The notes below the pieces were generated by a model, which had not been told where the DNA came from, searched no databases, and saw nothing but the letters and a program-made list of their open reading frames with translations. The translations under genes were made by a program, and so were the position numbers. A stretch of 44,078 nt of DNA from Nemertoderma westbladi (lineage: Eukaryota; Animalia; Xenacoelomorpha): contig JAUCBJ010001599.1 of the NCBI GenBank assembly GCA_032718475.1, positions 1 through 44,078 on the forward strand, given 5' to 3'. Positions 3,111-44,078 of the stretch are shown piece by piece (within the stretch, counting starts at the first letter, position 1; every line of letters starts with the position of its first letter).

Positions 3111-3199
3111 GTTAATTATTTAATATAGTTATCGAATCGATATGATGTTTAGTTTGAAATACATAAAAATAGCCTAGTTGACATATAAGAGGAACTCAC

Positions 3200-5805: not shown

Positions 5806-5827
5806 GCCTTTTTTACATACAACTTAC

Positions 5828-8515: not shown

Positions 8516-8717
8516 CTGGAAACAAATAATATGTATTCAATTTTTGAAAACGAAACGTTGTGTGGCCGACATAATATTGACATCCAGGTAATTAATTATC
8601 TGTGAAGTATGTGGGCTTAGCATACATGTACCACTCCTTCAACCGTAGTCTGTCCGGTCAGTTTAGGCCAAGCTTCAAATTTTAATGAAATTAAACCAAA
8701 CTTAGTACATGTAGTGT

Positions 8718-12668: not shown

Positions 12669-14880
12669 TGAATACGCAGCATGAATACGTTGCTGGACAT
12701 ACATTGAGTGAATGAATACGTTGCTGGACATACATTGAGTGAATGAATACGTTGCTGGACATACATTGAGTGAATGAATACGTTGCTGGACGACATACAT
12801 TGAGTGAATGAATACGTTGCTGGACGACATACATTGAGTGAATGAATACGTTGCTGGACATACATTGTGTGAATGAATACATTGCTGGACGACATACATT
12901 GAGTGAATGAATACGTTGCTGGACTTACATTGAGTGAATGAATACGTTGCTGGACGAACATTGAGTGAATGAATACGTTGCTGGACGACATACATTGAGT
13001 GAATGAATACGTTGCTGGACGACATACATTGAGTGAATGAATACGTTGCTGGACATACATTGTGTGAATGAATACATTGCTGGACGACATACATTGAGTG
13101 AATGAATACATTGCTGGACATACATTGAGTGAATGAATACGTTGCTGGACATACATTGAGTGAATGAATACGTTGCTGGACGAACATTGAGTGAATGAAT
13201 ACGTTGCTGGACACACATTGAGTGAATGAATACATTGCTGGACGACATACATTGAGTGAATGAATACGTTGCTGGACATACATTGAGTGAATGAATACGT
13301 TGCTGGACATACATTGAGTGAATGAATACGTTGCTGGACATACATTGAGTGAATGAATACGTTGCTGGACGACATACATTGAGTGAATGAATACGTTGCT
13401 GGACATACATTGTGTGAATGAATACATTGCTGGACGACATACATTGAGTGAATGAATACGTTGCTGGACTTACATTGAGTGAATGAATACATTGCTGGAC
13501 ATACATTGAGTGAATGAATACGTTGCTGGACATACATTGAGTGAATGAATACGTTGCTGGACGAACATTGAGTGAATGAATACGTTGCTGGACACACATT
13601 GAGTGAATGAATACATTGCTCGACGACATACATTGAGTGAATGAATACGTTGCTGGACATACATTGAGTGAATGAATACGTTGCTGGACATACATTGAGT
13701 GAATGAATACGTTGCTGGACATACATTGAGTGAATGAATACGTTGCTGGACATACATTGTGTGAATGAATACATTGCTGGACGACATACATTGAGTGAAT
13801 GAATACGTTGCTGGACTTACATTGAGTGAATGAATACATTGCTGGACGAACATTGAGTGAATGAATACGTTGCTGGACGACATACATTGAGTGAATGAAT
13901 ACGTTGCTGGACATACATTGAGTGAATGAATACGTTGCTGGACACACATTGAGTGAATGAATACATTGCTGGACGACATACATTGAGTGAATGAATACGT
14001 TGCTGGCATAATTTGAGTGAATGAATACGTTGCTGGACATACATTGAGTGAATGAATACGTTGCTGGACATACATTGAGTGAATGAATACGTTGCTGGAC
14101 ACACATTGAGTGAATGAATACATTGCTGGACGACATACATTGAGTGAATGAATACGTTGCTGGACATACATTGAGTGAATGAATACATTGCGGACGACAT
14201 ACATTGAGTGAATGAATACGTTGCTGGACACACATTGAGTGAATGAATACATTGCTGGACATACATTGAGTGAATGAATACGTTGCTGGACATACATTGA
14301 GTGAATGAATACGTTGCTGGACTTACATTGAGTGAATGAATACATTGCTGGACGAACATTGAGTGAATGAATACGTTGCTGGACGACATACATTGAGTGA
14401 ATGAATACGTTGCTGGACATACATTGAGTGAATGAATACGTTGCTGGACGAACATTGAGTGAATGAATACGTTGCTGGACAAACATTGTGTGAATGAATA
14501 CGTTGCTGGTCATACATTGAGTGAATGAATACGTTGCTGGTCATACATTGAGTGAATGAATACGTTGCTGGACTTACATTGAGTGAATGAATACGTTGCT
14601 GGACATTCATTGAGTGAATGAATAAGTTTCTGGACATACATGAGTGAATGAATACGTTGCTGGACGAACATTGAGTGAATGAATACGTTGCTGGACACAC
14701 ATTGAGTGAATGAATACGTTGCTGGACTTACATTGAGTGAATGAATACGTTGCTGGACACACATTGAGTGAATGAATACGTTGCTGGATATACATTGAGT
14801 GAATGAATAAGTTTCTGGACATACATTAGATGAATACGCTGATGACATACATTGAGTGAATAGGTAGTCGGTCATACATT
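12668..14880. repeat. 31/34-bp minisatellite, ~70 copies
   Basis: Unit ATGAATACGTTGCTGGAC(GAC)ATACATTGAGTGA, decaying at the right end. Confidence 0.98.
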
Positions 14881-15580: not shown

Positions 15581-16112
15581 AAAGATGATGGAGACACAGA
15601 GAGGATGTAAAGATGATGGAGACACAGAGAGGATGTAAAGATGATGGAGACACAGAGAGGATGTAAAGATGATGGAGACACAGAGAGGATGTAAAGATGA
15701 TGGAGACACAGAGAGGATGTAAAGATGATGGAGACACAGAGAGGATGTAAAGATGATGGAGACACAGAGAGGATGTAAAGATGATGGAGACACAGAGAGG
15801 ATGTAAAGATGATGGAGACACAGAGAGGATGTAAAGATGATGGAGACACAGAGAGGATGTAAAGATGATGGAGACACAGAGAGGATGTAAAGATGATGGA
15901 GACACAGAGAGGATGTAAAGATGATGGAGACACAGAGAGGATGTAAAGATGATGGAGACACAGAGAGGATGTAAAGATGATGGAGACACAGAGAGGATGT
16001 AAAGATGATGGAGACACAGAGAGGATGTAAAGATGATGGAGACACAGAGAGGATGTAAAGATGATGGAGACACAGAGAGGATGTAAAGATGATGGAGACA
16101 CAGAGAGGATGT
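15581..16112. repeat. 28-bp minisatellite, 19 identical copies
   Basis: Unit AAAGATGATGGAGACACAGAGAGGATGT. Confidence 0.98.
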
Positions 16113-17029
16113 AAAGGATGTTGGTTTTAAGAAAATCACCGCCTTGACCGGCTAACGCCCATAATTTGAAGCTCAATTAGAATTGTTACAGTTTAGAATA
16201 TTAATTGGGTGGAAAATCCAAGGAATTATGTGAACCCATAAAGAAAGTAAGTGGTAAGTTGATAAATTGACCACCTGAGATTAAGTACCATAAATTTATA
16301 TATTTGCGACACCTGATACCAAAGGACTATCGATCAAATTCTCCAACGCATGAACACATAAGATTCATTGAATTATAGCAGCTAGAGTCGCCCAATCTAT
16401 AAAACAGATGGCTAATTAATATTCATAAATGTCCCTTAAGGGAAACCTTATCGGCTTAGTTACAGGGTATGCCTAGATTGACTACAATGTACGATTGCCA
16501 TTCAGTATAAATTTAAGTCAACTAAATCTAACAGTACGCTAGATATACAAGGATGGGCAATCTTTGGAGTGGAACATTTTCATTAACTAAGAATTCCGCT
16601 ATATTTTTGACAGGCTGCTTTTTGACAGGGCATTGACCCCTGGAAGAGCGAGCTATGTACCCCGTATCTGTATAATATATGGAATAAGGGTTGCACGTAA
16701 AACTAATCGCAAGTCGTAATTTCGTAATTAGATACCGCGGAGGAATTAGTAAGTAGGAAATCCCCAGTATCTGGCCCATATCACCGTAATTTGCCTGGGG
16801 ATTACTCCATAATTAGGGGAATTATTTTGAAGACGCGATAACAAGTGAGATATACCACCTTCATAAAATACAGGGAACTTACATTAAAAGGGAAACTGCC
16901 TCATAAAGCTCCTAAGTTCAAGATAGAGACTTTGAATTTATGATCTTAATATAAGATAATAATGGGGGGGGATCAATCACCAATTATAGGCCAAAAATTT
17001 CAAAAAACCTTTTTTGTTAGATTTTTGAC

Positions 17030-19182: not shown

Positions 19183-19356
19183 ATAGTGGACAAACGTTTT
19201 CACAAAATTTGGGAAAATCTCACCTAAAGTTACTTTGTAAAATCCATGTTGCTATGTAAGGAAACATGAAATTGAATGTGTTGTTAATATGGTGAATGGT
19301 CAGATTTTTTGGTTTGTCACAATTTAACCTTTTTATGTCGCAAAGACAAGCCACTA

Positions 19357-20223
19357 CACCATGTCCTGGAATATAGTGTCGTTATTCAGGTACCTGCCCC
19401 CCCCCCCCCCAAATTTTTCTACAAAGCATAATGAAATTTGAAACAGAGATAATTTCACCTCCCTCATCCTTGCTGGGTGAGCCAGAATTTTTATTTTTGC
19501 TTTCAATCTTTAGCTACAAGCGCTTAAAAAAGGTGTCTCCGTGATATTTCTCCAGTTACACTCCAGTTATTCTTCAATCTTATACTGATGGAAAGCTGGC
19601 CATGCAAGGATTCCAAATATGTAACATAATCTGAATTTGGTTGGGAAATAGCTGAGATATGAGCGTTCAAAAGTTGCATGGTTTTGCATCTGCATGAGGC
19701 TATTTTATTCTATTAAATAAAAATACCATATTCTAGAACATTTTCTTTATTTATGAATAGCTAAGTAATAGTATATAATTAAAGAGGCATTGCATTGTTG
19801 CCCAGCTACGTATGGAATAAACAAAATGTTCTAGAACATTGTGTGTTTATTAAATACAAATACATGCAACATTCGAATGCCCATATCTCCGCTATTTCCC
19901 AACCAAATTCAAATGTTTTTACATATTTGGAATCCTTGCATGGGCAGCTTTCTATTGGTACCAACAAATCACTATAAGGTTGAAGAATGATTGCACTGCG
20001 AGACTGTGACCTGTGGAATATTGCCTGAGACACCTTTTACAAACGTTTGTAGCTAAAGAATGAAAGCGAAAATAAAAATTCTGGCTCACCCACGGAGGAG
20101 GAGGGAGGTGAAATTATCTCTATTTCAAATTTGATGCAATCTCATTAAGATTTGTAGAAAAATTTGGGGGGGGGGGGGGGGGGCAGGTACCTGAATAACG
20201 ACACTATATTCCAGGACATGGTG
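19357..20223. mobile_element. Foldback MITE with ~400-bp terminal inverted repeats
   Basis: TA|CACCATGTCCTGGAATATAGTGTCG...CGACACTATATTCCAGGACATGGTG|TA. The arms stay complementary almost to the centre. Related fragments lie at ~9710-9860 and ~43740-43880. Confidence 0.9.
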
Positions 20224-20724
20224 TAATATAAAATACATTATAGAGTAAATGGAGACGCTTTAAGCGCTCAATTTAGACACTAAAGCTAAGGAAAATTAAA
20301 GAGCAGACCAAGGTGGATATAGGTGCATTCTTATTCGGTTAGTTAAAATTAAAAAAACTTTTGTGTGGCGCTCTTAAACCTTTTGTGTGGCGCTCTTAAA
20401 CCTATTGGTTTGGGCAAAATGAATACTAGTTTCCCAAATTAAATATGAAATTATTTAAGATAGTAAATATATAATATGTCTGTCTATGTCGATTATTTGA
20501 ACAACGTAAAGTAATATTTTAAGTTTAAAGATCATTTTATTTTATTGCGGCAATATTTTAAAAAGTTCGTATTTTTTGTAACAAACAAGCTCCGCATCTG
20601 TTACGAAGTTGGCAGTTATAATGCTGCGATAATGGCTTTTGAAATACAACCATAGCCCCATGCTAATTAGTGGGAACGCCATAAGGCATTCCCATGTAGT
20701 AAAACATATAAACAAGAAACCCAC

Positions 20725-21072
20725 TTGAAGGACTGTGACCTTGTGCATGGCAACGTGGTGTATCCGAAGTTGGGATTCTTCGACTCGAGTTTCAGCAGGT
20801 AGAGTTGTACCAGACTGCCCATGGCTTCTCGGATAACCTCCAGGTGGTAGCATGGATCACGACGTTGCTCAGCGACCGGTCGACGCGACGTAGAGGGTTC
20901 ACCCTCGGGGGAAGCGAGTGGGGGTTGCCCTGGTAGCGAGTCAATCACTTTGCTTGCCGTTTCGTCCGTTGTAGGCTGGGGAGCTACAAATTTGAAGGTC
21001 TTTACATCGGCGTATTCCAGTAGTTCAGCTAGCGCTCTGTTTACGTTATTATGGCAGGAAATAACGGCGGCA
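20725..21072 (-). CDS. RAPGEF1: RAPGEF1/C3G-like exon (SAAVISCHNNVNRALAELLEYAD...)
   Basis: Acceptor TTCAG, donor GTGGGT, phase 2-2. Resembles C3G SALSSCYSRVYQSLANLIRWSD. Confidence 0.8.
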
Positions 21073-22396
21073 CTGAAATACAATGTATGTCATTAAATTA
21101 TCTTATTCCCGTAAATAAATAAACCACAGACAAACAGAAACAACAATAAACTCATTAAATACCACAAAAATGACATGAATAATTATCAAAATCGCAAAGG
21201 GGAAAAGGTTGATTTAATTTAATATTATTATTAAAAACAAGCCGGGATTACATTAGGGTCAATCAAAGCAATCAGTCAAATACCAGCTGAGTGAGTTAAC
21301 AATAATACAATCGTGGATTAATTACGAGATACGAGGTCGCATATCAGATGGAGAGAGTCGGGTGACAAACTTCATTCGAACTCGCTAGCTCAGCGGAAAA
21401 ACACAAGGTTGGGTTACCTAGTTTGGTCCGCACAGGTAAATTCCTAAACAATAATTTACTAGAAGGGAACGAGAAATAGCTATTACTAATAGTGTAGTGA
21501 GGTAATAAATATACCGTAATTTGAGCTGTTAGCTTTAAGGAGCTTAGGAAAGCACTTTATCATATATCACTCATGGCGGCAGAACATATCAATCGTTATG
21601 GGAAAACATGATTTGGGATAGAAATTCAAAATGTACTGCGACACAGCACGACTGCACAATAATACTTCCCCTGTCGCACTGTCAGTTGAATTGCATGAGG
21701 GGGGGGGGGGGGGGGGGGGCATAAACTTTCACATTGGGAATTACAATGAGGGTTTCCTTATCATTAGTTTGAATCTGGTTGTACTGTGACTACCGGGGCC
21801 CCCCCTTGGAGTCGCAGTAAATGCTCTCCGATGTGTAGTATAACGATGTAGTATAATGGGACTGGCGTGGAATTATTCATTGTCCCAAATTAATTCAATG
21901 GAAGAAGGAATATAAAGTAAAGCACATCCTGCGGCAGGGCAGAAACGACGGGGTTGGTTTCCTGTTATCCTGCCCAGAGAACCCAAGGTTGGAACTGGAG
22001 GTCGCCAATAGCAACCACACCGCCCCAAGGCGAGGAAGGCCAATAAATCGTTGGCTACTAGAATCGACTCGAGTTGGAAATCCTTCCCCCAGGAATGTCG
22101 GAAAGTGTTTAACTTCCACGGATGAAAGGGAAATGACAAATGCTCGGCATGAGTTGACGGTCAAGGTTAACTTTAAAACTAAGGAAGCCTGGGGAGAGCC
22201 ATGAACTAAGTGAAAGATTCCATTATAATTAATTATTTCCCGCAAAGTTCCGTTACCAGCTAAAATGCCAATTATTTAGATAATTAATTTATTTCATATT
22301 GCACTGTAAAGTCCCGTTTTCGCTTGGCCGCTTTTGGGACGTTTCTCCAGAAGTTAGTTCACATGTTATTATTTTTAAAAAAAAACGTGAGTAAAC

Positions 22397-23060
22397 CCAA
22401 GGACTTCTAGAACATAGCATATATTCATAGTATATATATATTAGTATATACATAGTGTATATATTAGTATATTCATAGTATATATATTAGTATATACATA
22501 GTATATATATTAGTATATACATAGTATATATATTAGTATATTCATAGTATATATATTAGTATATACATAGTATATATAATAGTCTATACATAGTATATAT
22601 ATTAGTATATACAAAGTATATATATTAGTATATTCATAGTATATATATTAGTATATAGTATATATATTAGTATATACATAGTATATATATTAGTATATTC
22701 ATAGTATATATATTAGTATATACATAGTATATATATTAGTATATTCATAGTATATATTAGTATATACATAGTATATATATTAGTATATACATAGTATATA
22801 TATTAGTATATTCATAGTATATATATTAGTATATACATAGTATATATATTAGTATATACATAGTATATATATTAGTATATTCATAGTATATATATATTAG
22901 TATATACATAGTATATATATTAGTATATACATAGTATATATATTAGTATATACATAGTATATATATTAGTATATACATAGTATATATATTAGTATATACA
23001 TAGTATATATATTAGTATATACATAGTATATATATTATAATGTGTTCTAGAAGTCCTTGG
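22397..23060. mobile_element. MITE-like element whose interior is a 23-bp AT-rich minisatellite
   Basis: Perfect 18-bp TIR CCAAGGACTTCTAGAACA; interior (CATAGTATATATATTAGTATATA)n; no clear TSD. A lone related end lies at ~34698. Confidence 0.7.
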
Positions 23061-24032: not shown

Positions 24033-26280
24033 TGATTGTGTGCTACTCTCCAACTAGTGTTGCCCCTGTAGAGGAGGTGGAAAATTTCTACCACAATCTA
24101 CAAGCAGCAACTGATGGAGTGGATTAGCATGCATTCTTAACATTCCTGGGATACTTTAATGCAAGTCTGCATCAATCACCTACATCGCCCTGGGTCTATA
24201 GCGATTGTGTTAACCGAAATTCCGTCCATCTTCAGGATTTTATCTCTGGAAATGGATTGTTTTCGGCTGGAACCAAGTTCAAGAGCTATACTGCCTTCAC
24301 AGAAGCAGTTAAGTTAACAGCTGCAGAAACAGTTCCTGTATACCCTCGACACAGGAAAAGGGCCCCCTGGACTGACAACAAAATTCAGAAGTGCCGAAAT
24401 GACCTCTATAAGGCGCAGAAAGAGTCCCGACTCATACAGACTACAGCGGCCAAGAATGCAGTTAAGGCTGCATCTAGGTCCCTGAACAGGCAGCACTCTG
24501 TTAATTTACAGGAGCTAATAAACCAACAGGTTGATGCCATCAATGATGCTGACGACAGCAGGCAATCATCCCAGGCATGGAAATCGATCAACTTGCTTAC
24601 TGGGTGGAAAAGCCAACCAAACAAACAGCAAGGTTAAAGCTGAATCACGAGCCGATCGCCTCAATGGTTGGAAGGCCCACTTTGAAAAGCTCCTCAATAA
24701 TGACAGGGTACTGCCTGATAACTTTATAGAAGTAAAAGTGTCTGAGTCTGTACTCCCAGATATTCCCATTGGCGATATCTCCTTTGCAGAAGTGAAGGCT
24801 GCTGCAAAGAGCATTAAGACCAATCGTGCCAGTGGAGTAGATGTTGTTCCCCCTGAGGTCTTTAAAATACCTGAGTGTTTAAAGCTCATCTATCCCATCA
24901 TAGTAGACAAAACTAGACATGTACCGAACAACAAGAGTCCCACAAGAAATGAAAACAAATAAATTGGTGCCAGTTCCCAAGAAGGGCAACCTAACACTCT
25001 ATGGTTCTTTTCGGAGAATCTAGATTCCGTAAAGGTCGTGGGACCATGGAGCCCATTTTGGCACTTAGAAGGATAATTGAAGAGTTATCAAAAAAGAAAG
25101 ACAGGCATCTGGCTGTTATCTTTGTTGACTTCTTCAAGGCCTTTGATTCAGTCTCTCGCTCACGTATGTTCAGCATACTTTCATTATATGGGATTCCTGA
25201 TGCAATTATTGCAGCAATTAGATCAGTATACGATGGTTCGACAACATTTGTGACTACTGTTGACGGTGACACAGAACCATTTGAAGTGTTATGGGGCGTC
25301 CTCCAGGGAGACACACTTGCACCATTCTTGTTCATAATTGTGGTTGACTATGTTCTACGCATGTCCTTAGATCATCATAATGATGATGGAGTGATGATAA
25401 CTCCACCTACTGGCTCCAGAAGTCGAGGAAATCCTGCCAAGTAAATAACTGATCTAGACTTTGCTGATGACTTAGGAGTACACTCAGAATCACTAGAGGT
25501 TGCCCAACGGCTCCTCAGCTCATTAGAACATGCTGCTTCTAGTGTTGGTCTTTTTATTAACTCCAGAAAGACCAAAATTTTGACAGTTAACTTTGAAAGT
25601 CCTCAGCAAGTCTCTGATCGGATGAGCATAAGTTCAAAAGATGGTATGCTTGAGCATGTGGATGACTTCTGTTACCTGGGATCATGGATCCGGAAGTCAG
25701 GTGAGGACCTTCGAATACGTAAGGGAAAGGCATGGGCAGCCTTGAATAGGATTTCCAGGATTTGGAAGTCCCCGAGAATTAATCGGAAACTTAAGGTCCG
25801 ATTATTTAGAGCAGCAGTAGTTCCAGTACTCCTCTATGGGAGTCCATGCTGGGCTCTAACTGCTGAGGACACCAAATCTCTGGATGGCACATTCACAAGA
25901 ATGCTACGCCGGGTTCATTGTGTCAAGTACAATGCACACATCTCCAACCAGACACTATATAACATTGGAGGTGTCTCATTGGTTCCCCCAAGCTTGACAC
26001 TAGAACAAAATCGCATCCGCTTTGCAGGACATTGCTTTCGCCGTGAGGACCAGCCAGTGCATAATCTTGTACTTTGGCAGCCTCATGGAGTGAATAGGCA
26101 TGGTGGACAGCCCATGACTTTCTTGAGACGCATCTTAAAGGACACTGGCCTTGAAGATGCGGATGATCTAGCAAATGTCATGGGTGATAGGGAGTTGTGG
26201 CGGCGCAATTTTGTCGACAAGCCGGCACAGCATTCTTAAAAATGCAGCTGCAATGCAGCATGCCGATCATAGTAGTAGTA
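24033..26280 (+). mobile_element. Degenerate RTE-clade non-LTR retrotransposon
   Basis: APE remnant (CYSPTS), VPVPKKGNL, FVDFFKAFDSV, GVLQGDTLAPFLF, DLDFADD, FCYLGS, LLYGS and a short (TAG)n tail. Has an in-frame stop at 25442, frameshifts and internal deletions. Confidence 0.93.
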
Positions 26281-27940: not shown

Positions 27941-30900
27941 TAATTGGGATTCCGGTCATGTAAGTTTAATTGTAATGGAAGCATGTAAAATCATTTGTCT
28001 ATCTATATTGTCAGCCATAAATTTATAAATTATATGGAAGAAACATGATGGACTGTCTTAACCTTTCCTGGGGACGATATTTTTACACAAAATCCTCAGT
28101 GATGCAAACAGGCAACAAGGCGTCCTTTAATACAGACCATGCGGCCGCGATTTAGGCAAAATTTGCGTAGGCTGATACTTTTACAATAGTATATATAGGC
28201 AATTCAATGCTTATTATGGGTAATCAGACAATGTTTGTGTATCTTATTAGTTGAAATATACTTCAGTAAACTATATTTTGTAATTTATTAAATTTGTACT
28301 GATAATTAAACATTTCAAATGGTTCGCTGACATATAAATCGGATGACGTTTGGGTGGATCTGGAATCTGGCAAGATGGTACTGCAGAGGTGGCGTTATCT
28401 GTTATATGTTTACTTTATATTATTATTAACGGTGTGGTAGGTACTTTATATTATCTATCAGGAACTTTATGTAATTATTTTGTTATTGCCTACCCAATAT
28501 TCCTCACCACAGCGTGAAAAACATATCAATGAAACTGTTTCTTCACTAATTAAATAGATTAAGTAACAATCCTGAGAATTAATCGTAAATCATAAAATTA
28601 AACGTGTGACTCCTCCCCTGCAGATAATTGTCTCAGTTTTAAAGAGTCGCATTGGCAGATAAGTTAAGGGCACTGCCAACCTCATTCAACGCACGGGCTG
28701 GAACAATGAAACATGGAACGAGCTTAAAAACAAAGGATGGCCCTCCGAACAAACAATGGATCATAATGACCAAGAGAAAAGTCGCCAGTTTATCTGGACG
28801 ATCCACTGGAGTGGCCATTACAGGCCAAGCATTGACCCAACGTGGTACTGTAGGGATGGTTTTACATAACTTCGAGAAATTAAACACAATTTTGTCGATT
28901 TTGAGTACCACTCAAAAAAAGCTTTACTCAATACTTGTAGCGAATATGGAATCAACAGATAAATAAACCCATTCTTCGGAGCATTAAGAATTGAAACTTG
29001 CAGAAACTTATATTAGTCTGCTGGTAATTGTTAAGGTGGCGATGGCGAACTATCTTTTCAATTTCTGATCAGGCGAATGCGAACGGTATGGAAAGGAAAC
29101 TCTTTTCCAACCAAAAATACGATGTGAAGTTAATCCCAGCACCCAGCCACCCCGTAGTGGCGTTGTTCTTTCGAAACTCTACCGTCCACTGAGCGACTAC
29201 GTAGACCTTCTCTCTATTGGCTCATCGCAAATACAGCAATAATACCGGTAGTCATCGTGAGTATGAGTAACAATGTCCATTGTTATATACCAAATTGACA
29301 ATGGTGGCTGTTATGACGAGGCGGATGGAGAGGGGATACAGGACATGGGTGTAACGAAAACACTGACGGAGGATGGGGACGGACGGAAGCACCTCCGCGA
29401 ACGCGAACGACTTCACCGTGGTCTCCGGTCAATACTTTCGACAAACGCCAATGTTCTTCGTTACACAGGCAATAATGTTAGGTAGCGCCCGCAGAAAGGC
29501 ACGCATTTGATTCGAAGACGAAAACCTTTCCAAGGTTCTGTTCCTCGAGAGTGGCGTCGCAATTCCATCAGCAGTAGCCGCCACAGCATTATTTATGAGG
29601 CATTATACTGTTCTAATTCCATTATAAATCAGTCTACGTAAAACTAATACTGTAGGCCTAAAGAAAACTTGAGTTTAATAAAGCTAATTAACTAATTAAA
29701 GTAATATATTCTGTCAATCAATTAGTCTACCTACAACAACTAGCATAGCTGCATAGCACAATAGCATTGTACTGTTAATAAACAGGGGCATCAAGTTGGA
29801 TTATTGATCACAATAAAATTTACTAAGGTTCGGTATGACCTTTTATTCCATATTTGGAAACAGCTGATAGCTGATTAATCTCAAAAATAAAACTGTAACC
29901 TGTCTAATGATTTTAGTTTATTGTTTCGGTTAGAATGGCGTGCCAATATAAACTACCTCTTTGCCTTAATTTATAAATTTAACTTTAGTGACGAGATATT
30001 AATTCGCCGAGATGGGACCCCTTGGACTTCACCCATCTCATGACCTGGGGGAACCCCCAGCCCCCCCCCCCCCCCCCCCCCCAGTCTCAAACTACGTCAT
30101 ACAAACTCTGAACAACCCAGGAAACAAGAAAGTAATACGAAACCAATAAATTTAATTGTAATTATGGGATTTTATGTTTACAATTCCATGGAAATTGCGA
30201 TCCAAGAAAATCTTGTAATATTGCAGAATGGAACTGCGTCGTTGTCTGCATATAAAAGGGGAAATAAAGGCAGCATATATCTAAAGAGGAAATGATTGCG
30301 GCGAACAATCGAACATGCAAACCCATAACCACCTAGGCGCGACAACAAGGTAGAAAACCCTCGCAATATCAATCGGCATTAAACATCTCAGTAGCAAAAC
30401 GCAATGCAATAAAGCGTTCAAATCACAACCAACAAAATTATGTTGGAATTCCTAAGCAAATATGTCGGGTGATTAATTCAATTCAAATTGACATAAATAT
30501 CATGCGACACAAGATAACTGTCAGTTCAGATGCGCCTCACAACACTGCCAAAGGCGTTTAACAACGTAAAGTAAGTGGTATAACATTACCGAGATCATTA
30601 GATGATTATTATCTCATCTGATAAGAAACATCATTTAACACCAGTTCTTTGGAGAATCGCGATTAATTAATGTACAATGACGCATTGGTAGCGCATGTAC
30701 CGGTAATAACTTATTGAAAGGCATTTTAAGCTGTTCCTCCGAATGTGATAATAAAGTTATTTGGTTGAATTCGCCGAATGTAAATGGAGGTTATTTGGAA
30801 TGGATGCCGAGAAACAAATCATTACAGGGGCATCACAAGCTTGGAATAAAACCATGCGATGCATTACGGATGATCAATAAAACAGAGAGACATCATTCCG

Positions 30901-31432: not shown

Positions 31433-31669
31433 CATCAAAATATTTCAATGAAAGACGGACGCCTTTTTCAGCGGTGCGTAGATTGTCTATATCTCTGATA
31501 TAATGGGGTCGGTTGTGTCCTGTAATACCGTTACCAGCTCCAGTGGGGGAGGGGAGTGACAGTGATGCCTTGCCCACTGATGAAGGGGTGGGGGACAGGC
31601 TGCGGTGAATAATCTTGTTCTTAAGTAGGGTTGGTATGCGTGCGACTTTCCCAACAGGCGATATCGATT
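31433..31669 (-). CDS. RAPGEF1: RAPGEF1/C3G-like exon (ends LRTAEKGVRLSLKYFD)
   Basis: Acceptor TTGCAG, donor GTAAG, 237 nt open, phase 1-1. The end resembles the C3G N-terminal helical region (EKEVVSALRYFK). Confidence 0.8.
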
Positions 31670-32196
31670 CTGCAATTAGAAATTGGCAAATAAATTACAC
31701 GTCCGAGTCAGTAAGGCTTAGTACTACTCAGCAGTTCAATGGGAAATCGGACTTCCGTATTAGTTCAATATATTGACAAAGTAACGAAACATTAACGTAT
31801 GCCTTCATACTGTAAGGTTAAAATACAAAAAATCATAAAGAAACATGGCGGAATCTAAACTGCATTTAGGCGAAATGATTCCTAATCTTGACGGCTACGT
31901 GCTTAACACATCCCTATATAATATATAACGCGCATTTTCCGTGGTTGCAGCTGTCAGTATACTGCCACCGAAGTATGAGTTCAACCCACTAACCCGCCCG
32001 TTAATGTTCACTTAGAGAAATCCATTCATTTTGTCATAGTCCAAGTTAAGACTGTGCAACTATCGATGTGATTCACCCTTTCTATACTATTGTATACCAG
32101 GAATCCAATATAAAGTTAATATATTTATAAGAATACAATGTATACTATCTTATATGTCTTGTCTGTTTACTTACTTCATTCCAATATATTTGTATT

Positions 32197-33256: not shown

Positions 33257-34018
33257 CAGGCCACTTTAATTTGTAGAATCCAGAAAATAAATAAATTAAG
33301 CTAAATTCTAGTCCTCCAAAATCTTAATTTGTAGGTTAATTTCTAGCCCCTATTTTCTGCTTAAAAACGCTTAATAAACTCGTAATTAGCATCGAATGAG
33401 TGTATTATAAGTTCCAACAAACAGACATACAGAAACACTCAAGCCCAATTGAATTTTGAGTTTTTTTTTATATTTTAGTATTAAAAGTTCTTCAAACTGC
33501 TGCGAATCAAAGCACTACTCTAGGGAAAAAATTACTCGAACTGCTTCGATTTTCGTTTTTAATAACCCGAACTCCAGTCTCCCTTTCTGACTCCTTATTG
33601 TTGTCCGTTTTACTTCCACCAGCGCTTCTAAAGTGCCGATGTTATAACAACTGTTAATAATAATTATTTATTTATAAACAAACCACACCAAACACTAATC
33701 CGTACTTATATTTTATTTCATAGTTGTGAACCTTGTTTGTATATATACTATTCATTTTATTGAGTTTACTAATAATTAATGAATAATATAAATTGTCGTC
33801 TTACCCCGTTGGGGTGTCTCTTAATAAAAAAAGTGCCGATGTTATCAGATGTCAAGTTCAGCTACACCCTGTTTGTCATTTTTGGTGTAATTGTTTAGTA
33901 AAAGCGCCTCTAGTCAAGAAAAAACATTATTTTTTTACCCTTATTTTCTAGTACTCCAAAATCTTAATTTCTAGCTAATTTCTAGATTCTTGAAAATTCT
34001 ACAAAATAAAGTGGCCTG
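33257..34018. mobile_element. Non-autonomous hAT-type element (MITE)
   Basis: TIRs CAGGCCACTTTAATTTGTAGAAT / ATTCTACAAAATAAAGTGGCCTG and a perfect 8-bp TSD ACAATACA. Confidence 0.88.
33646..33829 (+). mobile_element. Short retroposed 3' end nested in the hAT MITE
   Basis: Ends in AATAAAAAAA and is flanked by a 16-bp direct repeat AAAGTGCCGATGTTAT (33630-33645, 33830-33845). Confidence 0.75.
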
Positions 34019-34879
34019 ACAATACATGTACTTTGAACTCTGAAGACCGGTTTACGTGGGGCAACATTTTGAGCAACTTGGTGAGCAACTCATGTTACCA
34101 ATGAAATTGCTCCTTATAAACACGAAGCTGATGTAAAAAAAATTGCAATGTTTAAACTTCGAACAAGTTAAGTTTCTCAAAATAAAGTTGCTGGTTGCTT
34201 GCCAAGTTTGTCAAAAACGTGTAACCCGGACATCATCTAGCCAAATGATAAAGGAATCGCTTTACAATACAGGATGCATACTAGACATAAACACCTGACC
34301 ACCTGACAAGGAAATGATAAGATAGCTATAACAAACAAGAGATTTATACGAAAGAGCTACAATGTGAAAGCGGATCACCACTAGTCCTTGAAGTATAGCA
34401 GGCCAGGGAAATATAGATAGAAATGGGACAATTATTAACCAATGACAAACAGCATGTAGTAGGCCCAGTAGCCATTTAGAAACAGAGGGAAGAAGGTTAC
34501 TTCGGTTTACACCAAAGAAATTCCATTGGCCAGTAATCATTTAATGGAATTCCGAAGTTGGGAGCTTTCTAATACTTCACATCATACCTGAGCTGTGCTG
34601 CAGTGTGCCTGAGTAGCACTAGCACACGCTATTTTTTTTTATTGAATGCAGTTTTAATTTTAATTAATTTATTAAAATACAATAATTGCACATAATCAAG
34701 GACTTCTAGAATACAGTATATTGGGCGTTGCACTTAGCTCCCACTGTAGTTTTTGAAGGCTGATTTTTTCTTTGGTATTTTAATACTACTTTAATCTGAT
34801 TTTAATTCTGATGTTTTTCTTAATTTTTTTTTTCTTGCATAATATGCCATGTTGATTTTCAAATTTAAGTAATTAGTTA

Positions 34880-35500
34880 TTATTCCAAAATTGTAACATT
34901 ACTCAACGCCGTTAGTATTAACAGCGAGTTGTTATTTAGCACTTTACAACCTTAGAGGACATTACAGCATTGTATTGGCCTGTACAATTAGTATTATATA
35001 TAGTGGGTGTTGTAATGTCCCATGTTTATGTAGTAACCAATGACGGCGAGCTGTAAAGTTACGGCGTCAATGGTTACCACGTAAACAATAGTGGAAATTT
35101 GCCTGACAGCCAGATAGGCCTACTGCATTACCTAACGGTAGGCGGGGTATAGCTATTAATAACCAGTAGGGCCTAGCTATATTATTATAACATGGCTCCA
35201 AACGCCACCATAAATACAAGCTAACTTATTTATAACATAATTTATGTCATTTTTAAATTTATTTATACAGCAACTAATTTAATTTGTGCAGTTTCTATCA
35301 CTTATAATATATATACAATCATTTCGTAATGTTACAATTTTGGAATAAAACAACATACTTGTTGCAAAGAGTCTTTACAGTGTTCTGATCCTCGTGGCTT
35401 TAATTTCGCTCACTCACTAACGTTCGTTGGTGTAACAAAGCCACTCGGATCATCACACTATAAAGTGCTACTTAACACACAAGTATGTAAATAGTTATTA
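34880..35500 (+). mobile_element. ~620-bp dispersed double-hairpin repeat, copy 1
   Basis: Colinear with the reverse complement of 39789-40393. Internal inverted repeat TTATTCCAAAATTGTAACATTAC plus a terminal ~135-bp hairpin. Confidence 0.85.
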
Positions 35501-37044
35501 TGTAATTTAAAAAAATTAGCTACCATCAAATAGACTTACTTCTGCCACAATTGAAAAATCACGAATTACTTAATATTTGGAGACCCACATAGCAAGCATA
35601 TGCATGAAGAAAAAATTGAGATAGAGCATCAGAAAATACTTTTATTCTTAAATCGTTACTTTTTTGCTCAAATATACCTCAAAATCTAGAGAAAATGGAG
35701 TATTTTTAAAATAAAACAAAATATTTTTGGTGGAATTTCTTAAGGGGAGTAGTACAGGCATTTTTTCCATACAAACTACTATTAAGCCTCGGTACACTTT
35801 AAGAACACATCAGATTACTTTATAGGCCAACTGTTCCTGAATTCCAACCGGAATTTAACTGGCTTTCAGGTAATCCAATTGGTTTTTTGAATTTCTCAAG
35901 ACATTCAAATTTTCTATAACTCAAATGGCAGTTTTCACTTTTAATGAAATCTTATTTGTCTGTATGTCTGTCTGTCGGTCTTTCTGACTATCCGACAATC
36001 TGTCCGTCATATATAAGAAAAGGGCATACAATCTAGTTAAAAGTTTAGCTAGATGGGTTTTCCTGGTCGCAGAATTAATTTCGAGTGTCAGTTTTAACAT
36101 TTGATGACTTCCAAATTGTCTGTTTGGCAGTCAATCTGCCGGTTATATTTTGACGCACAGACTGACATGACAGGCATACAGACAGAAACGACGAGCCCAA
36201 ATTTGAATATTGAGATCAGAAATGAAGTAACCGACCACGAAAACCCATATATGTAATTTTTTTAGACAGATAGTTTGCTTTTTATTGACGGACAGACATA
36301 CTAACGGACAAACCGACAGTCAATCAGACAGACAGCCATATCTCGTAAAGTAAGACAGATCTTACTAATTTTGGAATCTTGATAAAAATTTGCTCTAGTT
36401 GAAATAGAAAAAAAATTTGATTTGCACGAAAAAATTTGCACGAAATTATAGCAAAATAAAAGCTCATACTGAAAAGTTATTGCAACTATAGTGTCTGTAA
36501 GGCGTGCTCCAAAACGGAACTCAATATCCAATATAGTTTGTGTAGTTAAGCGGCTCTCTAGTTACGTAATAAATATTCGAGAACACTAACTTATTTAACT
36601 TTGAGTAAGGCAGTAACAGGAGTTGAAAATTACAATAATTGGATTTGGAATCGCTGTAACTATGGAAGCAATATAGTAAAATACAGAAATACTGCAGTTC
36701 AAATTATCTTGTAACACTTGAGTGAAATATTTAATTCCGCCACTCGCCGCTAGAGGGACACAAAAAAATTTACAATTTCAATTTTTGTTGCTCTTAGGCC
36801 TTCCCCACGTTTGCTGAACACAACATAACAGTGATATTGACCTACAACACGAAGTTTGAGCTGTTTAAAAAAAAACTCTCCTGAGGGGGTACCCCCCCCC
36901 CCCCCCCCCGCGCCCTTAAAGAATGACATGAATGAGCAACAAAAAAGTACAAATTTATGAATAAAATTACGTACCGGGTATTACATAGGTAATCATTGTA
37001 GCAGGTACCGTCAACCGTAGATGATAATAGGCAGATAAGCATAC

Positions 37045-37090
37045 CTGATTTATAAACTGGGACCGGATGTTCGGAGGAAATTGCTGCCAT
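37045..37090 (-). CDS. RAPGEF1: RAPGEF1/C3G-like, candidate first coding exon (MAAISSEHPVPVYKS)
   Basis: ATG at 37090 and donor CAG|GTATGC in phase 1, matching the phase-1 acceptor at 31669. No homology support; based on splice signal and phase only. Confidence 0.6.
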
Positions 37091-38680
37091 CTAGCTAACC
37101 GTCAGTATCTGTCAGTCTGTATTGAATATCAATCACTGGCGCGCTGACGCCAGAATGCCAGGCCAAGCTGCAACAAGGCCAGCTTGCAACTCTCTTCCAG
37201 TCTTCTATCGAGAGTCTATCAAGCTAGACAGCTAGACTACCTCCATCCATTCCACATTGCTCCAGACTGCCAGACCTGTCTGCCTGTACTCTGCAGTAGG
37301 CTACACTTCTGACTGTCTGGTATGCCTACACCTACGGTACCATACTGCCATACAGTCCCCTTGCCACTTCAGCACTTACAGCCTTACGCTTACAGCCCTT
37401 TTCAGCAGTTCAGGTTTTCTACAATTTGCTGACCCTGACCTGACCTGGACTCCTGAAGTATTCCCTTCCGGCTTCTGCCTGTCTGCCACTACCTGACTGT
37501 GACTCCCTTGATGCCTTGGCCTTTTGGCAGCTTTGTTGGTGCTAAGCCAAGCTACTGAGCTAGGTGCTAACCAGAAACCAGCTAACGTTTTTGCTGCTTT
37601 GTTCAGTTGATAGTTTTGTAGCGGAACCGAGTCGGAGCGGTAGATTTGAGATCCAGCTATAGGCTAGGGCCTATCACAACTGCATCAATCATGACTACAT
37701 TGTGATATGCAATCTGACTACTGTTCGCGCCTACCGTACCTGCCTACACATACCTGCCCTGCATACAACTGCAAACTGTACAGATGTACCTCAGTAGCTT
37801 ACCACTGTTTGACTTGCGGTCTTGCGCTGTGACTGTGTGCAGGTGAGTTGCGACGTGCTGGCTGGCGTGCAGTTTGCATTGCGGACACAACTGTCAACTG
37901 TTATACTGTTGACTGGTTGAATGTTGTAAATGTTATACTGTCAACTGGCATGATCTGACTGCCAGAATGCTGACATGACTGCATGACAGCATGACACTAT
38001 ACAGATATAACACAGATCATGCCTGCATGCACCATGCTGCCATGCAGATACAGACTGACATAGCTGCAGAGAGTGCTGGAGTGCTGAGTACCGGTGGTAT
38101 CTGGGTATTGGAGTACTGGCTGACTGGAGTAAGGCTAGTACTGTAGTATGTAGTACAGTAAGGCTGTAACAGTGTAAGGTCAGAAGGTAAAAAGTCTGTC
38201 GCAGTCGTTGAGTCGTTCCGTTGGGTAGCGCGTAGCGGTAGTCCGGTAGGCCTAGTGTTGATTGATAGCCTACCCTGCTACCCCTAAATGCTAATGCATA
38301 ATACACTCAACAGCTCAATGCAGTACTGCTGTACCTGTGTACCGTACTGCTGTAGTTTAGTGACATTTTCTTTGACTGGTTGGCCTACTGTGTACTGCTG
38401 TACTGCCGTACCCAGTTATCAGACAGTGAAGTCCGCCAGACTGTCAATGTTATCATTATCTGTGGTCAACGACCTCTCGAACAAATTACTTATTCAATAA
38501 AAATTAGGCATATTCTGGAAGTAACTACTTTCCTTCTAAATACTTCCCCACCAAGACGTAGTACATCAGTATACCGTTCACCGTTAAGCGTAACTAATAG
38601 CCCGACCGAAACGTGAAAACCTGGTATACTGTATAGTGTATATAGTGTATACTGTAGTATATACAGTAGTGCAGTACGCA
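37091..38680 (-). promoter_or_regulatory. Probable RAPGEF1 5'UTR/promoter, saturated with short duplication footprints
   Basis: Lies immediately upstream of the candidate ATG, is GC-richer than its flanks, and has at least 16 NNNNN-CWG-NNNNN motifs. Promoter identity is positional inference. Confidence 0.5.
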
Positions 38681-38938
38681 GTACGCAAAAAGCCAAGTGG
38701 GGTGATGTTTCAGCCTTCTTGTAGGGTTAATGTTAAATTAATATTGAAAAATTAGGGCCTAGAAGTAAGTTTTACTGTAAACTGTGTTCCTAAATTTAGT
38801 TTATTGATTTGGTTAGAAAAGCCTACTTTAAAAGGTACATTATACTGTATGGTGAATATCGAAATTAAGTATTCGCGAAATTAAGTTAATATGTTAAAAT
38901 AGGCTGAAACGACACCCCAATTGGTAATATGCGTACAG
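38679..38938. mobile_element. Old Tc1/pogo-like MITE
   Basis: Imperfect ~35-bp TIRs CAGTACGCAAAAGCCAAGTGGGGTG..TTTCAGCCT / AGGCTGAAAC..CACCCCAATTGG..TGCGTACAG. Confidence 0.55.
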
Positions 38939-39788
38939 TACTACCAACGTCAATCAGTCATAATATGATTTCTCTACATTACAATTGTGGGGGGACCGAA
39001 CTAAAAATCATTCGTCAGAGAAGAGAGTGTGTAATCCCTGGAAAGCCGAATAAAACGTTAATGTTTTACTTTATTTTTTTTTCATAATGATTCAATGCTA
39101 CTATAGATAGAGTGGGCACTAATTACAACTTTCTTTCTAAGGAAAGTTGTATTGTGTCACCTAGCATTCCAAATTTGAAAAACTTTTAACTACCTTGGAA
39201 CATGTTTGCTCAACCTCACAACTACGTACCAACCTGAATCCAACTACAGTAACTACAAACTATTACTAAAACACGTTCGTGTGGCCTTCGCGCAGCACGA
39301 GGCTCAGATATGAGATATAGATTAATATTGAGCGATTCTACTGTATCACAAACTCGGTATCTAAGAAATTTAACCAAACACCAATAAATCAAAGAGAGAT
39401 AAAAGCCCCCCCCCCCCCCCCCCTCTTAACCTCCCTAGCGACCCAATTTGTAAGAAATATAAAACTTACCTTATGCTGATAGTGTTGATACTGAGATATT
39501 AATTTATCATGTCAACACCTCAACGAAATTATTTACCTAATTATTCTAAAGAATCATGATTAAGTACTCGGCCAATCATTTTGTAAGCTAAACACAATAA
39601 CCAAGCTGGCTTATTAGTCTGGCTCATTACAATGTTGCCTTTGAGTAGTGATGAGGTGGTTGGACTGGAGGCTAGCTGGGAAGACTAGCCTTCACAGCTA
39701 GGCTAGCAAGCATACCAAGTAATGAGGGAGCTATGGAAGTATAGCTGGGGACAGGGCATTTTAATAAGTTAATTACGTTTAGATCAAT

Positions 39789-40393
39789 TAATAACTATTT
39801 ACATACTTGTGCGTAAAGTAGCACTTTACAGTGTGATGATCCGAGTGGCTTTGTTACACTAACGAACGTTAGTGAGTGAGTGAGTGAAAATAAGGCCACG
39901 AGGATCAGAACACTCTAAAAGTACTTTGCAACAAGTATGTATGTAGTTTTATTCCAAATTTTTAACATTACGAAATGATTGTACATATATTATAAGTGAT
40001 AGAAACTGTACAAATTATATTAGTTGTTGTATAATTAAATGGAAAAATGACATAAATTATGTTATAAATAAGTTAGCTTATATTTATGGTGGCGTTTGGA
40101 GCCATGTTAACAACATAGCTACTGGTTATTAATAGCTATACCCCGCCTACCGGTAGGTAATTCAGTAGGCCTATCTGGCTGTCAGGCAAATTTCCACCTA
40201 TTGTTTACGTGGTAATCAATGACGGCGTTAAGTAATGTCCACTAAGGGGACATTACTTAACTACTAACACCAAATACAATACTAAATGTACAGGCCAATA
40301 CAATGCTGTATTGTCTTCTAAAGTTGTAAAGTGCTAAATAACAACTCGCTGTTAATACTAACGGCGTTGAGTAATGTTACAATTTTGGAATAA
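39789..40393 (-). mobile_element. ~605-bp dispersed double-hairpin repeat, copy 2 (inverted)
   Basis: Reverse complement of 34880-35500 with scattered substitutions and one indel region. Confidence 0.85.
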
Positions 40394-40489
40394 AAACACA
40401 TTTCTTAAAGCAAATCTCTTGAACTAATTAAAAACTATAATGGAATGGGGTATGGGGAATATAGCTGTATAATTGTTACACCGATTGAG

Positions 40490-40771
40490 TTAGTGGTACC
40501 TGTATGACAAGCTCGCTTACTTTCGTGGCTCGCCCCACATTCTCACCGTAAGTTCAACAGTCTTGATGTGGGGCGAGCCACGAAGTGAGTGAGCCTTAGC
40601 GTAGTGGTACCATTAATCAACCTGTGGGGCGAGCCACGAAGTGAGTGAGCCTTAGCGTAGTGGTACCATTAATCAACCTGTCGTTCTGTCGTTCTGTGGG
40701 GCGAGCCACGAAGTGAGTGAGCCTTAGCGTAGTGGTACCATTAATCAACCTGTCGTTCTGTCGTTCTGTCG
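40490..40771. repeat. Hairpin whose right arm (~57 bp) is triplicated
   Basis: GCTCGCTTACTTTCGTGGCTCGCCCCAC pairs with GTGGGGCGAGCCACGAAGTGAGTGAGC. The latter plus flank occurs three times, with (TCGTTCTG)n after the second and third copies. Confidence 0.85.
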
Positions 40772-41051
40772 CGTTTTTTTTCAGTATTTTATTTTAAACG
40801 TTAATAACTCGGCCAATCCTTGATGAAATCTATCCAAACTTGGTACACATGTTGTTTGGCAAAAGTTTGAAAATTTTCCAAGTAGAATTTGCGTGGGGCC
40901 TTCGTGCAGCATCAGTGTAACTGTTATTGCAGTTATAATAAATTTATTTATCCCAAATTTAAAATGCGTTAAATTATTATTACTGTAGGATAAATCAGCT
41001 GGTTTTCTGACAAATTTTGCAATTCTGCATGCACCATGTGTACCGGTACTG

Positions 41052-41773
41052 TTATTATTATTATTAGTCAACACTCCTTTATTACATCATATTATAACTA
41101 TTTGTTGCACGTGAAGTAAGATAAAACATAATTAGTGGAGGGAGAAAAACCACCCAGGCGTATCAGCGCTTACGGGGGTTAATAAAAAACAAAATTTAAA
41201 ATCACTAAACATTAAAATTTACATCAGCTTAAAAAAAAAAATTAAAAAGAAATACGAATAAAATGAACTGTACATACCGTAGAACCCAGAAACGTTTATT
41301 ACGAGCGACCGATTAGTGGTCGATTAAATTTGCAAATTGGTAGGAAATCGTGGTTCTTGAGCTTGGTCGCAAAACTGACAAGTGTTCTGGAATCTACTAT
41401 ATCTTCTGGCAAATCATTCCAGACTGGCACAACACGGCTGGTAAATGAGTTTTTAGATATAATTAATCTACATCTAGGTACATTTAACTTGTGAGAGTGG
41501 CCACGCAGACCCGGACGGTTAGTATAGCTAAATAGCGCACCAAAATCTAAATCAACTAAATTTCTCTCTATACTGAAAAGTAACTTTAGATCAAAAATAT
41601 ATCGTCGGACTTCCAGCGGTTGTAAATTAAGGTGTTGTATTCTATGTATGTACGGTTTGTAACTAATATTGCAACGGCTATACAATCTACGTGTAAAATA
41701 TCGCTGGACACTCTCCACAAGATCAATACTGCCTAATGAAAAAGGCGACCATACTGGTGTACAGTATTCAAAC
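41052..41773 (-). mobile_element. 5'-truncated CR1/L2-group LINE 3' end
   Basis: EYCTPVWSP..VESVQRYFTRRL..LRGHSHKL..FTSRVVPVWNDLP, followed by a 3'UTR, AATAAA and a (TAA)n tail. Confidence 0.9.
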
Positions 41774-42069
41774 TGTCAGGCTGTACTCAATCCCTGAATC
41801 GAGAATCCTGCTAGGGTGCATTTATAGTCAGATGCCGTCCGATCCGATCCGATCCGATGCATTTCGGCAATTATTGTAGCTACAACTGTCAGACTGCAGA
41901 CTGTACAAGCCTAGCTGCTTAGGCTAGGCCTACTTCTGTTTTGCCTAACACTGAACGCAGTCTGGGTATGACTATTGCTGTATTGGCCTATTGCATTAGG
42001 CTATTGTATATCAGTATATGGCATGGCAGTACTGCAGTATGCAGGTATGGCAGTACTGCAGTACACAGT

Positions 42070-42946
42070 ATGGGATCATTCGTAGCTCTGTAGCTGACTG
42101 TGGTGTTCAGAAGGAAATCGGACGCGCGTTGGACTGTTGGATGTCCTGGAATGGAGTCTACCGACCAACTTGCAGGGTGAGGCTGTCCCTCTGCAGCTCT
42201 GATCCTGGGCGGTGGAGACTGTGCTGATGGCGGCGGAAGCGGGAAGACCGGGGCATTCTGTATCCCGATACTACAGCTGGTCCATGAAACTCTACGGTAC
42301 AAACTCCGAGATGGAAAACTCGATGGGAAATCGGGAGGAAGAACTAGGCCTACGAAATTTCAGTTGAACTCATTCGATAGAGCGATAGAGGTGACCAGTT
42401 GGCCATCTCCCCGGACGGTTGCTGTGTCATGCGCGTGGCCAGAGGAGTTGGCACGGTACCCGGACGACTAAAGGAATAGTCGGATCCGGTCGTTTCGTTA
42501 CTATTCAGCTATTACGAGGCGACGGTAAAGGACGAGGTGCGAGGGCCCATGCCGGGTTGGTTGGAGCACCGGAAGCGCGACACTCGATAGATCGGGACTG
42601 ATAAAAATAGTTTTGGCTTCGGAGGAAACGGTAAGAAGTGTTTCGGGCGGCATTTTGACGACTATGGACAACCATATGGACTAGGCGACGTGATCGGTTA
42701 TCGGATCGATCTGGATGTGGGCGCAATTGGGTACCGGTACAGTAAAAACGGAAGTGATCTCGGGAAAGCTTTCGACAGTTCGAGATTCCCGCTAATTTAC
42801 GCAAACTCCCGTTATTCCTGTATTCCCGCAGTCTGTGGTCTGTCGGTATCTTTAAAGAATGCTGAAATTATGTTTATTTTCGCCGAATTTATCCGTTTAT
42901 CTGCGCATCTTCTTTCCGGGTACACCATTGTATCCCGGGCGCCGTT
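42070..42946 (+). pseudogene. DDX1: DDX1 (DEAD-box helicase with SPRY insert) 5' fragment, multiply frameshifted
   Basis: Repaired translation reads [54 protein letters not shown]...DGLLCHAR..WHGTRTTKG..YYE..DEGPCRVGWST..GTDKNSFGFGGNGKK..SKNGSDLGKAFEIP..LKNAE. It carries more than 10 indels, including a deletion in motif I. Confidence 0.93.
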
Positions 42947-43120
42947 TTGTACCTACAATGTACCAAGTTGTGTAACTTTTGTACCCATTGTACCAAGTTG
43001 TGTACCTTTTGTACTTATTATGTACCAAGTTGTGTACCTTTTACACCTACTATGTACCAAGTTGCGTACATTTTGTACCTATTATGTAACAGTTGTGTAT
43101 GGTCTTGTACCTATTTATGT
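42945..43120. repeat. Degenerate ~31-bp minisatellite directly after the DDX1 fragment
   Basis: Unit approximately TTTTGTACCTATTATGTACCAAGTTGTGTACC. Confidence 0.85.
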
Positions 43121-44078
43121 TTCCTAAAGTAAAGATGTGTAATCTGATTATTATTATGATTGCTACATAACATGGTATAGAGACTATCTTATCTTATAAC
43201 CGTTATCAACAGTGTTGTAGTCATAATTTGCAACGTTTCATTGAAATAATCACTTGAAATATTCGAATACATTCTACCCATAATAATTAATACTAATTAT
43301 TGTAAAACTATTTTTCTATGCGGAAATCCAGACTGAAAGTCTCTCTCTTGATATCTGTTGTTCCTTTGCGTCAATATAATTAGAGTGTATTTAACAAATT
43401 TATTGTATCCGTTGAAATGTATTTGTTAAACAATAATTTAGTTGTCATGATTTTTAAGTAAGATTAGGTTAATTAAATAAAGCCTTTATAAAATTATTAT
43501 TATTATCCTGGGGGAAACTTTACAGCTTTATCGAAACTCTATAGCTCCATGGTAAGTATAGCTCCACGAAACTCTATGGGGGGGGGGGGGGGGGGGGTAG
43601 TATACTCCAGGTATTAAACTAAACTGATCCTTTTCTTATATATGATGGACAGATTGTCGGATAGTCAGAAAGACCAAATTTAATATACTATCTAGTTAAG
43701 TTTTTGAATTTATTTTTTGAAATATACCAGAACATGACTAGCTATTTTATTTTTAAAAAATAATGTTCTAGAACGAATATTTTTTGAAATATTTAAAAAA
43801 TTATCAAACACTAATGTTTAGTAACTTTATTTTTTCATATCAATAAAAAGCTTGTCTTGCAAGGATTCCAAATACAACTAATTACCCAACTAATTAGTAT
43901 AAACAATTTCGTGGGAGGGTTTACGACGTACCTCCAGTTCCCCCTCCCTCCTCCAAGCCAATTACTAGCTTTACCTGTATCATGGACGTAGGGAGCATTT
44001 TTGAAAAGCGGACCATTATCATTTAAATAATTTTTTTTATATTTATTATAACTAACCGACCACAGGACTATGTTAATT

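Follow-up and report, generated by a model that had tools for sequence, protein, structure and literature searches.

In the 44,078-nucleotide stretch of Nemertoderma westbladi DNA analysed here (the window), diverse 5-mers are repeated across a fixed CAG or CTG. Which process would write such a motif, N5-C(A/T)G-N5, so densely into one short interval? The original prediction attributed it to a transposon combining Tc1-like 3-nt staggered excision with a non-specific 5-bp target-site duplication (TSD), which would have inserted and excised here many times and would fit no recognised superfamily.

Two motif fields and evidence for insertion

All 17 motif positions listed in the original prediction were found in the window, and the interval 37,100-38,680 contains 25 exact motifs in total (field 1, Table 1). 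Dinucleotide shuffles of this interval gave an expectation of 0.07 motifs (maximum of 1, n = 200) and order-3 Markov simulations one of 0.26 (maximum of 2, n = 200), in agreement with the chance expectation of well under one given at the outset. The comparison with shuffles, other spacers and other repeat lengths, proposed at the same time and carried out within the window, showed that the enrichment is specific to 5-mers around CWG. With this spacer, a repeat length of 4 gave one motif and a length of 6 none in the same interval; length 3 showed a mild excess (8 against 1.5-2.7 expected), for which no explanation was found. Among the 5-mer repeats of field 1 a spacer of 3 nt was the commonest (59 versus 2.2 expected), with CTG (16) and CAG (9) leading, and over the whole window CAG (17) and CTG (26) stand against a single CAC and 4 GTG. 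Moreover, 37,091-38,445 holds 17 additional motifs with one mismatch, where 2.4 were expected (maximum of 9, n = 200), which suggests that the scar events are of varied age. Collapsing this stretch at motifs with up to one mismatch took out 43 events (2.6 expected), or 344 of 1,355 nt; about a quarter of the DNA between the likely transcription start site (TSS) and the ATG is motif-derived.

A second field, absent from the original prediction, has 11 exact motifs at 41,850-42,850 (0.04 expected), with the highest density around the start of a broken DDX1 copy. The remaining window outside tandem arrays has 5 motifs in 34,807 nt, against 1.1 expected (maximum of 4 in 30 shuffles). A 27-nt inverted match joins the two fields, and is read as a putative convergence of scars.

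The DDX1 fragment was identified by a SPRY match to PDB 4xw3 (E = 3e-14) and by Pfam. Its contig depth is about 30-40 times that of field 1; depth is not equal to copy number, yet this value suggests many copies of the fragment. A DDX1 profile, built from 24 of 150 returned proteins (31 of the 150 had the N-terminal helicase motif), was aligned to the DNA under three penalty settings, allowing frameshifts freely and taking no account of the motif. This alignment placed 11 insertions in the copy, 9 of which involve a 5-nt duplicate (Table 1); the other two (3 and 2 nt) are without explanation. Five of the six exact motifs in the copy coincide with insertions under all three settings, and the sixth (42,083), at the edge of the alignment, is spanned by one under a single setting. 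Other contigs were also compared. A diverged DDX1 contig over 42,149-42,304 has 9 letters missing and 7 added, and a high-depth paralogue over 41,925-42,179 has 16 letters missing and zero substitutions, the positions of the indels being putative in both; this arithmetic of contig spans is consistent with the motifs being insertions.

The multi-copy segment 41,050-43,200 includes, besides the DDX1 5' fragment, a LINE-like C-terminal fragment on the minus strand (41,299-41,775; no Pfam match), presumably CR1-like. The segment may have arisen when a mobile element captured part of a gene, and the DDX1 copy may be transcribed, since contigs of the cDNA-like run X4 cover it.

Table 1. Coordinates of the motif fields, polymorphic sites and gene features in the window
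Feature	Position	Strand	Remarks
Field 1	37,108-38,405	.	exact N5-CWG-N5 motifs (25), decayed copies (some 15 in excess of background) and trimmed forms of 7 nt
Likely RAPGEF1/C3G exon 1 and likely TSS (38,445)	38,425-38,445	-	piece of X4 contig 12, then GT donor
Intron 1, within the 5' UTR	37,335-38,424	-	20 exact motifs; acceptor 3 nt off the canonical AG in the window
Exon 2	37,045-37,334	-	5' UTR with 5 motifs, ATG at 37,090, 46 motif-free coding nt, GT donor
Exon 3	31,433-31,669	-	AG acceptor at 31,670-31,671; in frame with the ATG at 37,090; 3' end predicted
RAPGEF1/C3G-like exons	3,199-3,450 (RasGEF_N); 5,827-6,483; 20,811-21,072 (by eye only)	-	
Twice-hit site, CATGA three times	37,974-37,994	.	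spacers CTG and CAG, once each; 8 nt missing in X2/X3
GGTAT-CTG-GGTAT	38,096-38,108	.	exactly 8 nt missing in X2/X3 (likely empty allele)
7-nt polymorphic duplication, AACCAG-A-AACCAG	37,569-37,581	.	missing in X2/X3; membership among the footprints uncertain
Field 2, upstream part	41,850-42,070	+	dense motifs round the likely start of the DDX1 copy
DDX1 5' fragment, broken, multi-copy	42,071-42,890	+	frame broken by insertions in the form of 6 exact motifs and of trimmed ones
Putative DDX1 insertions, 8 nt	42,129; 42,191; 42,771		exact motifs
Putative DDX1 insertion, 13 nt	42,497		motif plus a spacer-less 5-nt duplicate
Putative DDX1 insertion, 7 nt	42,818 (motif 42,813)		net one base short of 8
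Putative DDX1 insertions with TG spacer	42,534 (7 nt); 42,837 (15 nt)		
Putative DDX1 insertion with C spacer, 6 nt	42,732		
Putative DDX1 insertion with GAG spacer, 8 nt	42,373		equally a perfect 8-nt tandem duplication

Anatomy of the motif and its alleles

Taking both fields together, CAG and CTG occur in 14 and 22 of the 36 motifs (p = 0.24), compatible with a ratio of 1:1. Reverse-complementing the ends of the duplicate gives the spacer in 1/36 and 2/36 cases, and the spacer repeats the adjoining 3 nt in 0/36 and 1/36. As the spacer is independent of the flanks, hairpin P-nucleotides were rejected as its source, and the rare match to the adjoining 3 nt led us to reject remnants of an 8-bp TSD as well. 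Trimmed forms also occur, with a CA/TG spacer, a lone C or no spacer. Indeed, N5-CA-N5 and N5-TG-N5 were found 10 times against 0.42-1.2 expected; other 2-nt spacers between 5-mers are also raised (18 versus 2.6-5.3), in part as shifted registers. The fixed, flank-independent spacer supports the Tc1-like 3-nt excision originally proposed, and the trimmed CA/TG forms fit the repair of a 3-nt overhang. The claim of a non-specific 5-bp TSD stands as to length and diversity, and has to be amended as to specificity, since the first base of the duplicate is a pyrimidine in 29 of 36 motifs (p = 3e-4). The mirror purine bias at position 5 (22/36) is not significant.

A different class of words was also observed. 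TA-CWG-TA is in excess at 38,500-39,000, just upstream of the likely TSS (6 versus 0.3), and elsewhere in the window (20 versus 5.2), which suggests ordinary Tc1-type scars as a second, separate class.

Contigs from four public runs (X1 to X4, of which X2 and X3 are one sample) were compared over field 1. The X1 contig is identical to the window across the field and is possibly the source of the window sequence. The independent sample X2/X3, with a single contig across the field, differs from the window by 10 substitutions and 7 indels, and has 20 of the 25 motifs exact, 3 with one substitution and 2 wholly absent. Thus the possibility of an assembly artefact, raised along with the original prediction, failed, as the motifs are also present in an independent sample. 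The 8-nt absences (Table 1) are likely empty alleles; two alleles give no polarity, and the polymorphism at 37,974 could be slippage of an 8-nt unit. The other indels include a 4-nt gain at 37,486 and, outside the field, three short insertions around 36,985; at 37,997, a substitution makes perfect a motif that has one mismatch in the window. The allele search suggested at the outset gave empty and scar alleles, between X2/X3 and the window, and no full allele. That the motifs are inserted sequence, as had been supposed, is backed by both the DDX1 alignment and the 8-nt empty alleles, and the polymorphic scars point to recent activity of the element.

Position at a likely gene start

Contig 12 of run X4, a run labelled 'DNA?', joins 38,445-38,425 to 37,334-37,045 and then runs into a loose end equal to 31,640-31,669. 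Read on the minus strand, each of the two skipped parts opens with GT, and the second one closes with AG. Past 38,445 the contig has 19 loose letters, which we take to resemble a cDNA template-switch adapter, and for this reason 38,445 is likely a transcription start. RAPGEF1/C3G exons lie downstream on the same strand (RasGEF_N match; crab RAPGEF1 homologue, 54%), and our inference is that the first exons belong to this gene. BLASTP of the frame at 20,670-21,089 against the crab RAPGEF1 protein gave no significant link.

All 25 exact motifs of field 1 fall between the likely TSS and the ATG, at 18-20 per kb; intron 1 has 20 of them and the UTR 5. Elsewhere near the gene there are none in the 46 coding nt, none in the 955 nt upstream and one in the 5.4 kb of the next intron. 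The 2.1-kb LINE described below and the stretch 3,000-9,600 are motif-free despite 92 and 182 CWG words, respectively. Field 1 is likely the 5' end of a gene and not an arbitrary hotspot, and a preference of the candidate element for the first 1-1.5 kb of a gene is likely. The targeting of TSSs, which appears likely, is based on two loci, one cDNA-like contig (run 'DNA?') and a first acceptor that is non-canonical in the window.

Several repeats were noted around this gene start. On either side of field 1 lies a copy of a very high-copy repeat (34,864-35,511 and 39,778-40,409), the two facing in opposite directions; the pair resembles long terminal inverted repeats (TIRs), and the copies are probably separate insertions. 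The edges of the field may in part reflect turnover by these flanking high-copy repeats. Just upstream of the likely TSS, a 33-nt stretch (38,603-38,635) matches the ends of other contigs, of 1.7-3.6 kb, from three runs with 3 differences, and is possibly a shared promoter motif. It is followed at 38,693-38,924 by a 232-nt high-copy MITE-like element with 24-nt inverted ends. An Rfam scan of 36,000-44,078 gave no match.

Probable origin of the motifs

We consider it probable that the 8-nt insertions are Sleeping-Beauty-type excision scars of a candidate CAG...CTG transposon with a 5-bp TSD and a preference for gene 5' ends. In Sleeping Beauty, the non-transferred strand is cut 3 nt inside the ends, leaving 3-nt 3' overhangs on the flanks, and non-homologous end joining after excision leaves the two target copies separated by CAG or CTG (PMC7827188, PMC8151067, PMC5224488). 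We infer similar steps behind what was observed, namely a specific motif that the DDX1 copy shows to have been inserted, the empty alleles and the trimmed spacers. The transposase would integrate with a 5-nt stagger and a weak preference for a pyrimidine at the first base, just downstream of TSSs, the target being probably open promoter chromatin. On remobilisation, the cuts would lie 3 nt inside each end in the non-transferred strand and at the tip in the other strand, as in Sleeping Beauty, and both flanks would keep a 3' CAG overhang. These overhangs would pair with one A:A mismatch, end-joining and mismatch repair would give N5-CAG-N5 or N5-CTG-N5, and trimming would leave CA, TG, C or no spacer. 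Scars would persist in UTR, intron and pseudogene DNA and be purged from live coding sequence. With a 5-nt duplicate in place of TA, the Sleeping Beauty model would explain why the spacer is fixed and occurs in two orientations, why trimmed forms exist and why the empty alleles lack 8 nt.

The view that an element inserted and excised here many times finds its counterpart in motifs that are 8-nt insertions; no element, full allele or transposase was found in the 44-kb window. We looked in the window for TIR pairs flanked by TSDs of 4-10 bp and for CAG...CTG pairs flanked by one of 5 bp; among the matches listed there was no matching element, and the CAG...CTG candidates were weak (8-9 of 12 positions matching) and judged to be chance. 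Pfam found no transposase domain in 196 ORFs of the window (17 + 87 + 92; tandem arrays and AT-rich or short frames set aside), and a 24-nt piece of a high-copy repeat of the window matched no contig in metagenome or viral collections.

Other repeats of the window are a 762-nt hAT-like MITE (33,257-34,018) with 23-nt TIRs starting in CAG and a perfect 8-bp TSD, and an 871-nt element (19,355-20,225) that is nearly all inverted repeat, with TA-CAC... ends. A frameshifted LINE on the plus strand (24,128-26,239), which we take to be RTE-like, has reverse-transcriptase matches and zero motifs, and the heavily decayed plus-strand frames at 28,600-29,650, with no Pfam match, presumably resemble an R4/Dong-like LINE. 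Intronic tandem arrays with periods of 42, 47, 31/96, 28 and 23 occupy 1,526-2,553, 11,492-14,861, 15,581-16,124 and 22,420-23,037.

Like Sleeping Beauty and the Tc1/mariner elements, the fields have a CAG/CTG spacer, a footprint of terminal bases, between the target copies. However, the duplicate is not the TA of Tc1/mariner, being 5 nt long and of diverse sequence, and, unlike the near-random integration of Sleeping Beauty, the scars are concentrated at gene 5' ends. P and Mutator elements show a preference for gene 5' ends, with TSDs of 7-10 bp and other footprints. The fields share this preference with them and with piggyBac, which is TSS-seeking and excises without a footprint (PMC8151067). 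No N5-CWG-N5 footprint was found in the literature covered, a weak test that excluded Repbase Reports and most subscription papers. In that literature, the excision geometry was found to be the undescribed part of the scars.

It is for this geometry that the original claim of no recognised superfamily holds; with regard to ends and TSD, a named group may match. hAT5 elements have a 5-bp TSD (PMC12730594) and hAT ends always have G at the third position (PMC1131882), and here, too, the TSD is 5 bp; the putative CAG end, deduced from the spacer alone, would have G third. The source could then be a hAT5-like element which forms the hairpin on the flank after a first nick 3 nt inside its end, so that CAG comes to lie in the hairpin loop. 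The presence in the window of a CAG-ended hAT-like MITE, with an 8-bp TSD, also speaks for it. We regard this route as improbable, because the hATs studied, like Transib, excise via a flank hairpin with blunt ends or a 1-nt 5' overhang (PMC8151067), and because hairpin opening should give inverted flank bases and mixed products, whereas the spacer is constant, flank-independent and mostly exactly 3 nt, with element bases retained. The papers covered, including PMC9587614, PMC6004678 and PMC3942097, gave no hAT5 termini or footprints. Transib itself has a 5-bp TSD, as found here, with invariant CAC ends and a preference for GC-rich targets (PMC1131882); the spacers are CAG/CTG, not CAC, and no hairpin-type footprint was seen.

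A smaller chance still is given to a process of the host, acting at open promoters, that duplicates 5 nt and adds CWG; it could be break repair, protein-linked duplication or the work of a domesticated transposase with no mobile element involved. The fields do lie at gene starts, no element was found in the window, and human germline protein-binding sites are enriched in 5-20-bp insertions, often duplications (PMC8559717). However, these human insertions are tandem copies of variable length (PMC8559717), the duplicate in the two fields has a fixed length of 5 nt, and the constant foreign CAG/CTG spacer calls for a donor. Extremely truncated retrotransposon or integrase events, leaving a TSD and a few terminal bases, are very unlikely, even with CA/TG spacers and LINEs present in the window. 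Truncation of LINEs gives variable lengths, not a sharp pattern of 5 + 3. Among integrase-type elements, some members of the Ginger2/TDD-4/TDD-5 group have 5-bp TSDs like those found here, and the excision mechanism of the related Ginger1 is described as unknown (PMC2836005); but Ginger and Gypsy ends are TGTNR (PMC2836005), incompatible with the dominant CWG spacer. Finally, the region is rich in CAG/CTG words (117 versus 41 by base composition), which might favour chance, slippage repeats or assembly error. The probability of these is negligible: order-3 and order-4 Markov controls that keep the CWG richness reached at most 2 (versus 25) and 5 (versus 36) motifs, the 5-mers are diverse, and the motifs are present in independent runs. 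With the DDX1 alignment, these results refute chance, slippage and assembly error.

To return to the preferred reading, excision scars of a candidate CAG...CTG transposon, a broader proposal is tentative and falls somewhat short of an even chance. It would see a new lineage combining Tc1-type double-hydrolysis excision with a nearly sequence-free 5-bp target cut and homing to TSSs, still active and rewriting promoters and 5' UTRs by hit-and-run visits at a rate of roughly one scar for every 5 point substitutions (the two alleles differ cleanly by 8 nt at 2 sites and carry 10 substitutions), with scars making up about a quarter of the gene's 5' region.

The length of the TSD and the chemistry of excision are regarded as characteristic of a family. 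A scar of the Sleeping Beauty type within a free 5-bp duplication would mean one of two things: a transposase lineage that has no name, or a hAT5 whose way of breaking DNA differs from that of its studied relatives. As the scars reveal the end bases, the TSD length and the target bias before the element is found, the search for it can be direct, and a TSS-seeking, TA-independent transposase, if true, would be of interest to tool builders. The scars would also amount to dense fossil evidence of where germline insertions took place. If their concentration at TSSs holds genome-wide, this species would owe a major part of its 5' regulatory mutation to visit-and-leave events of transposons.
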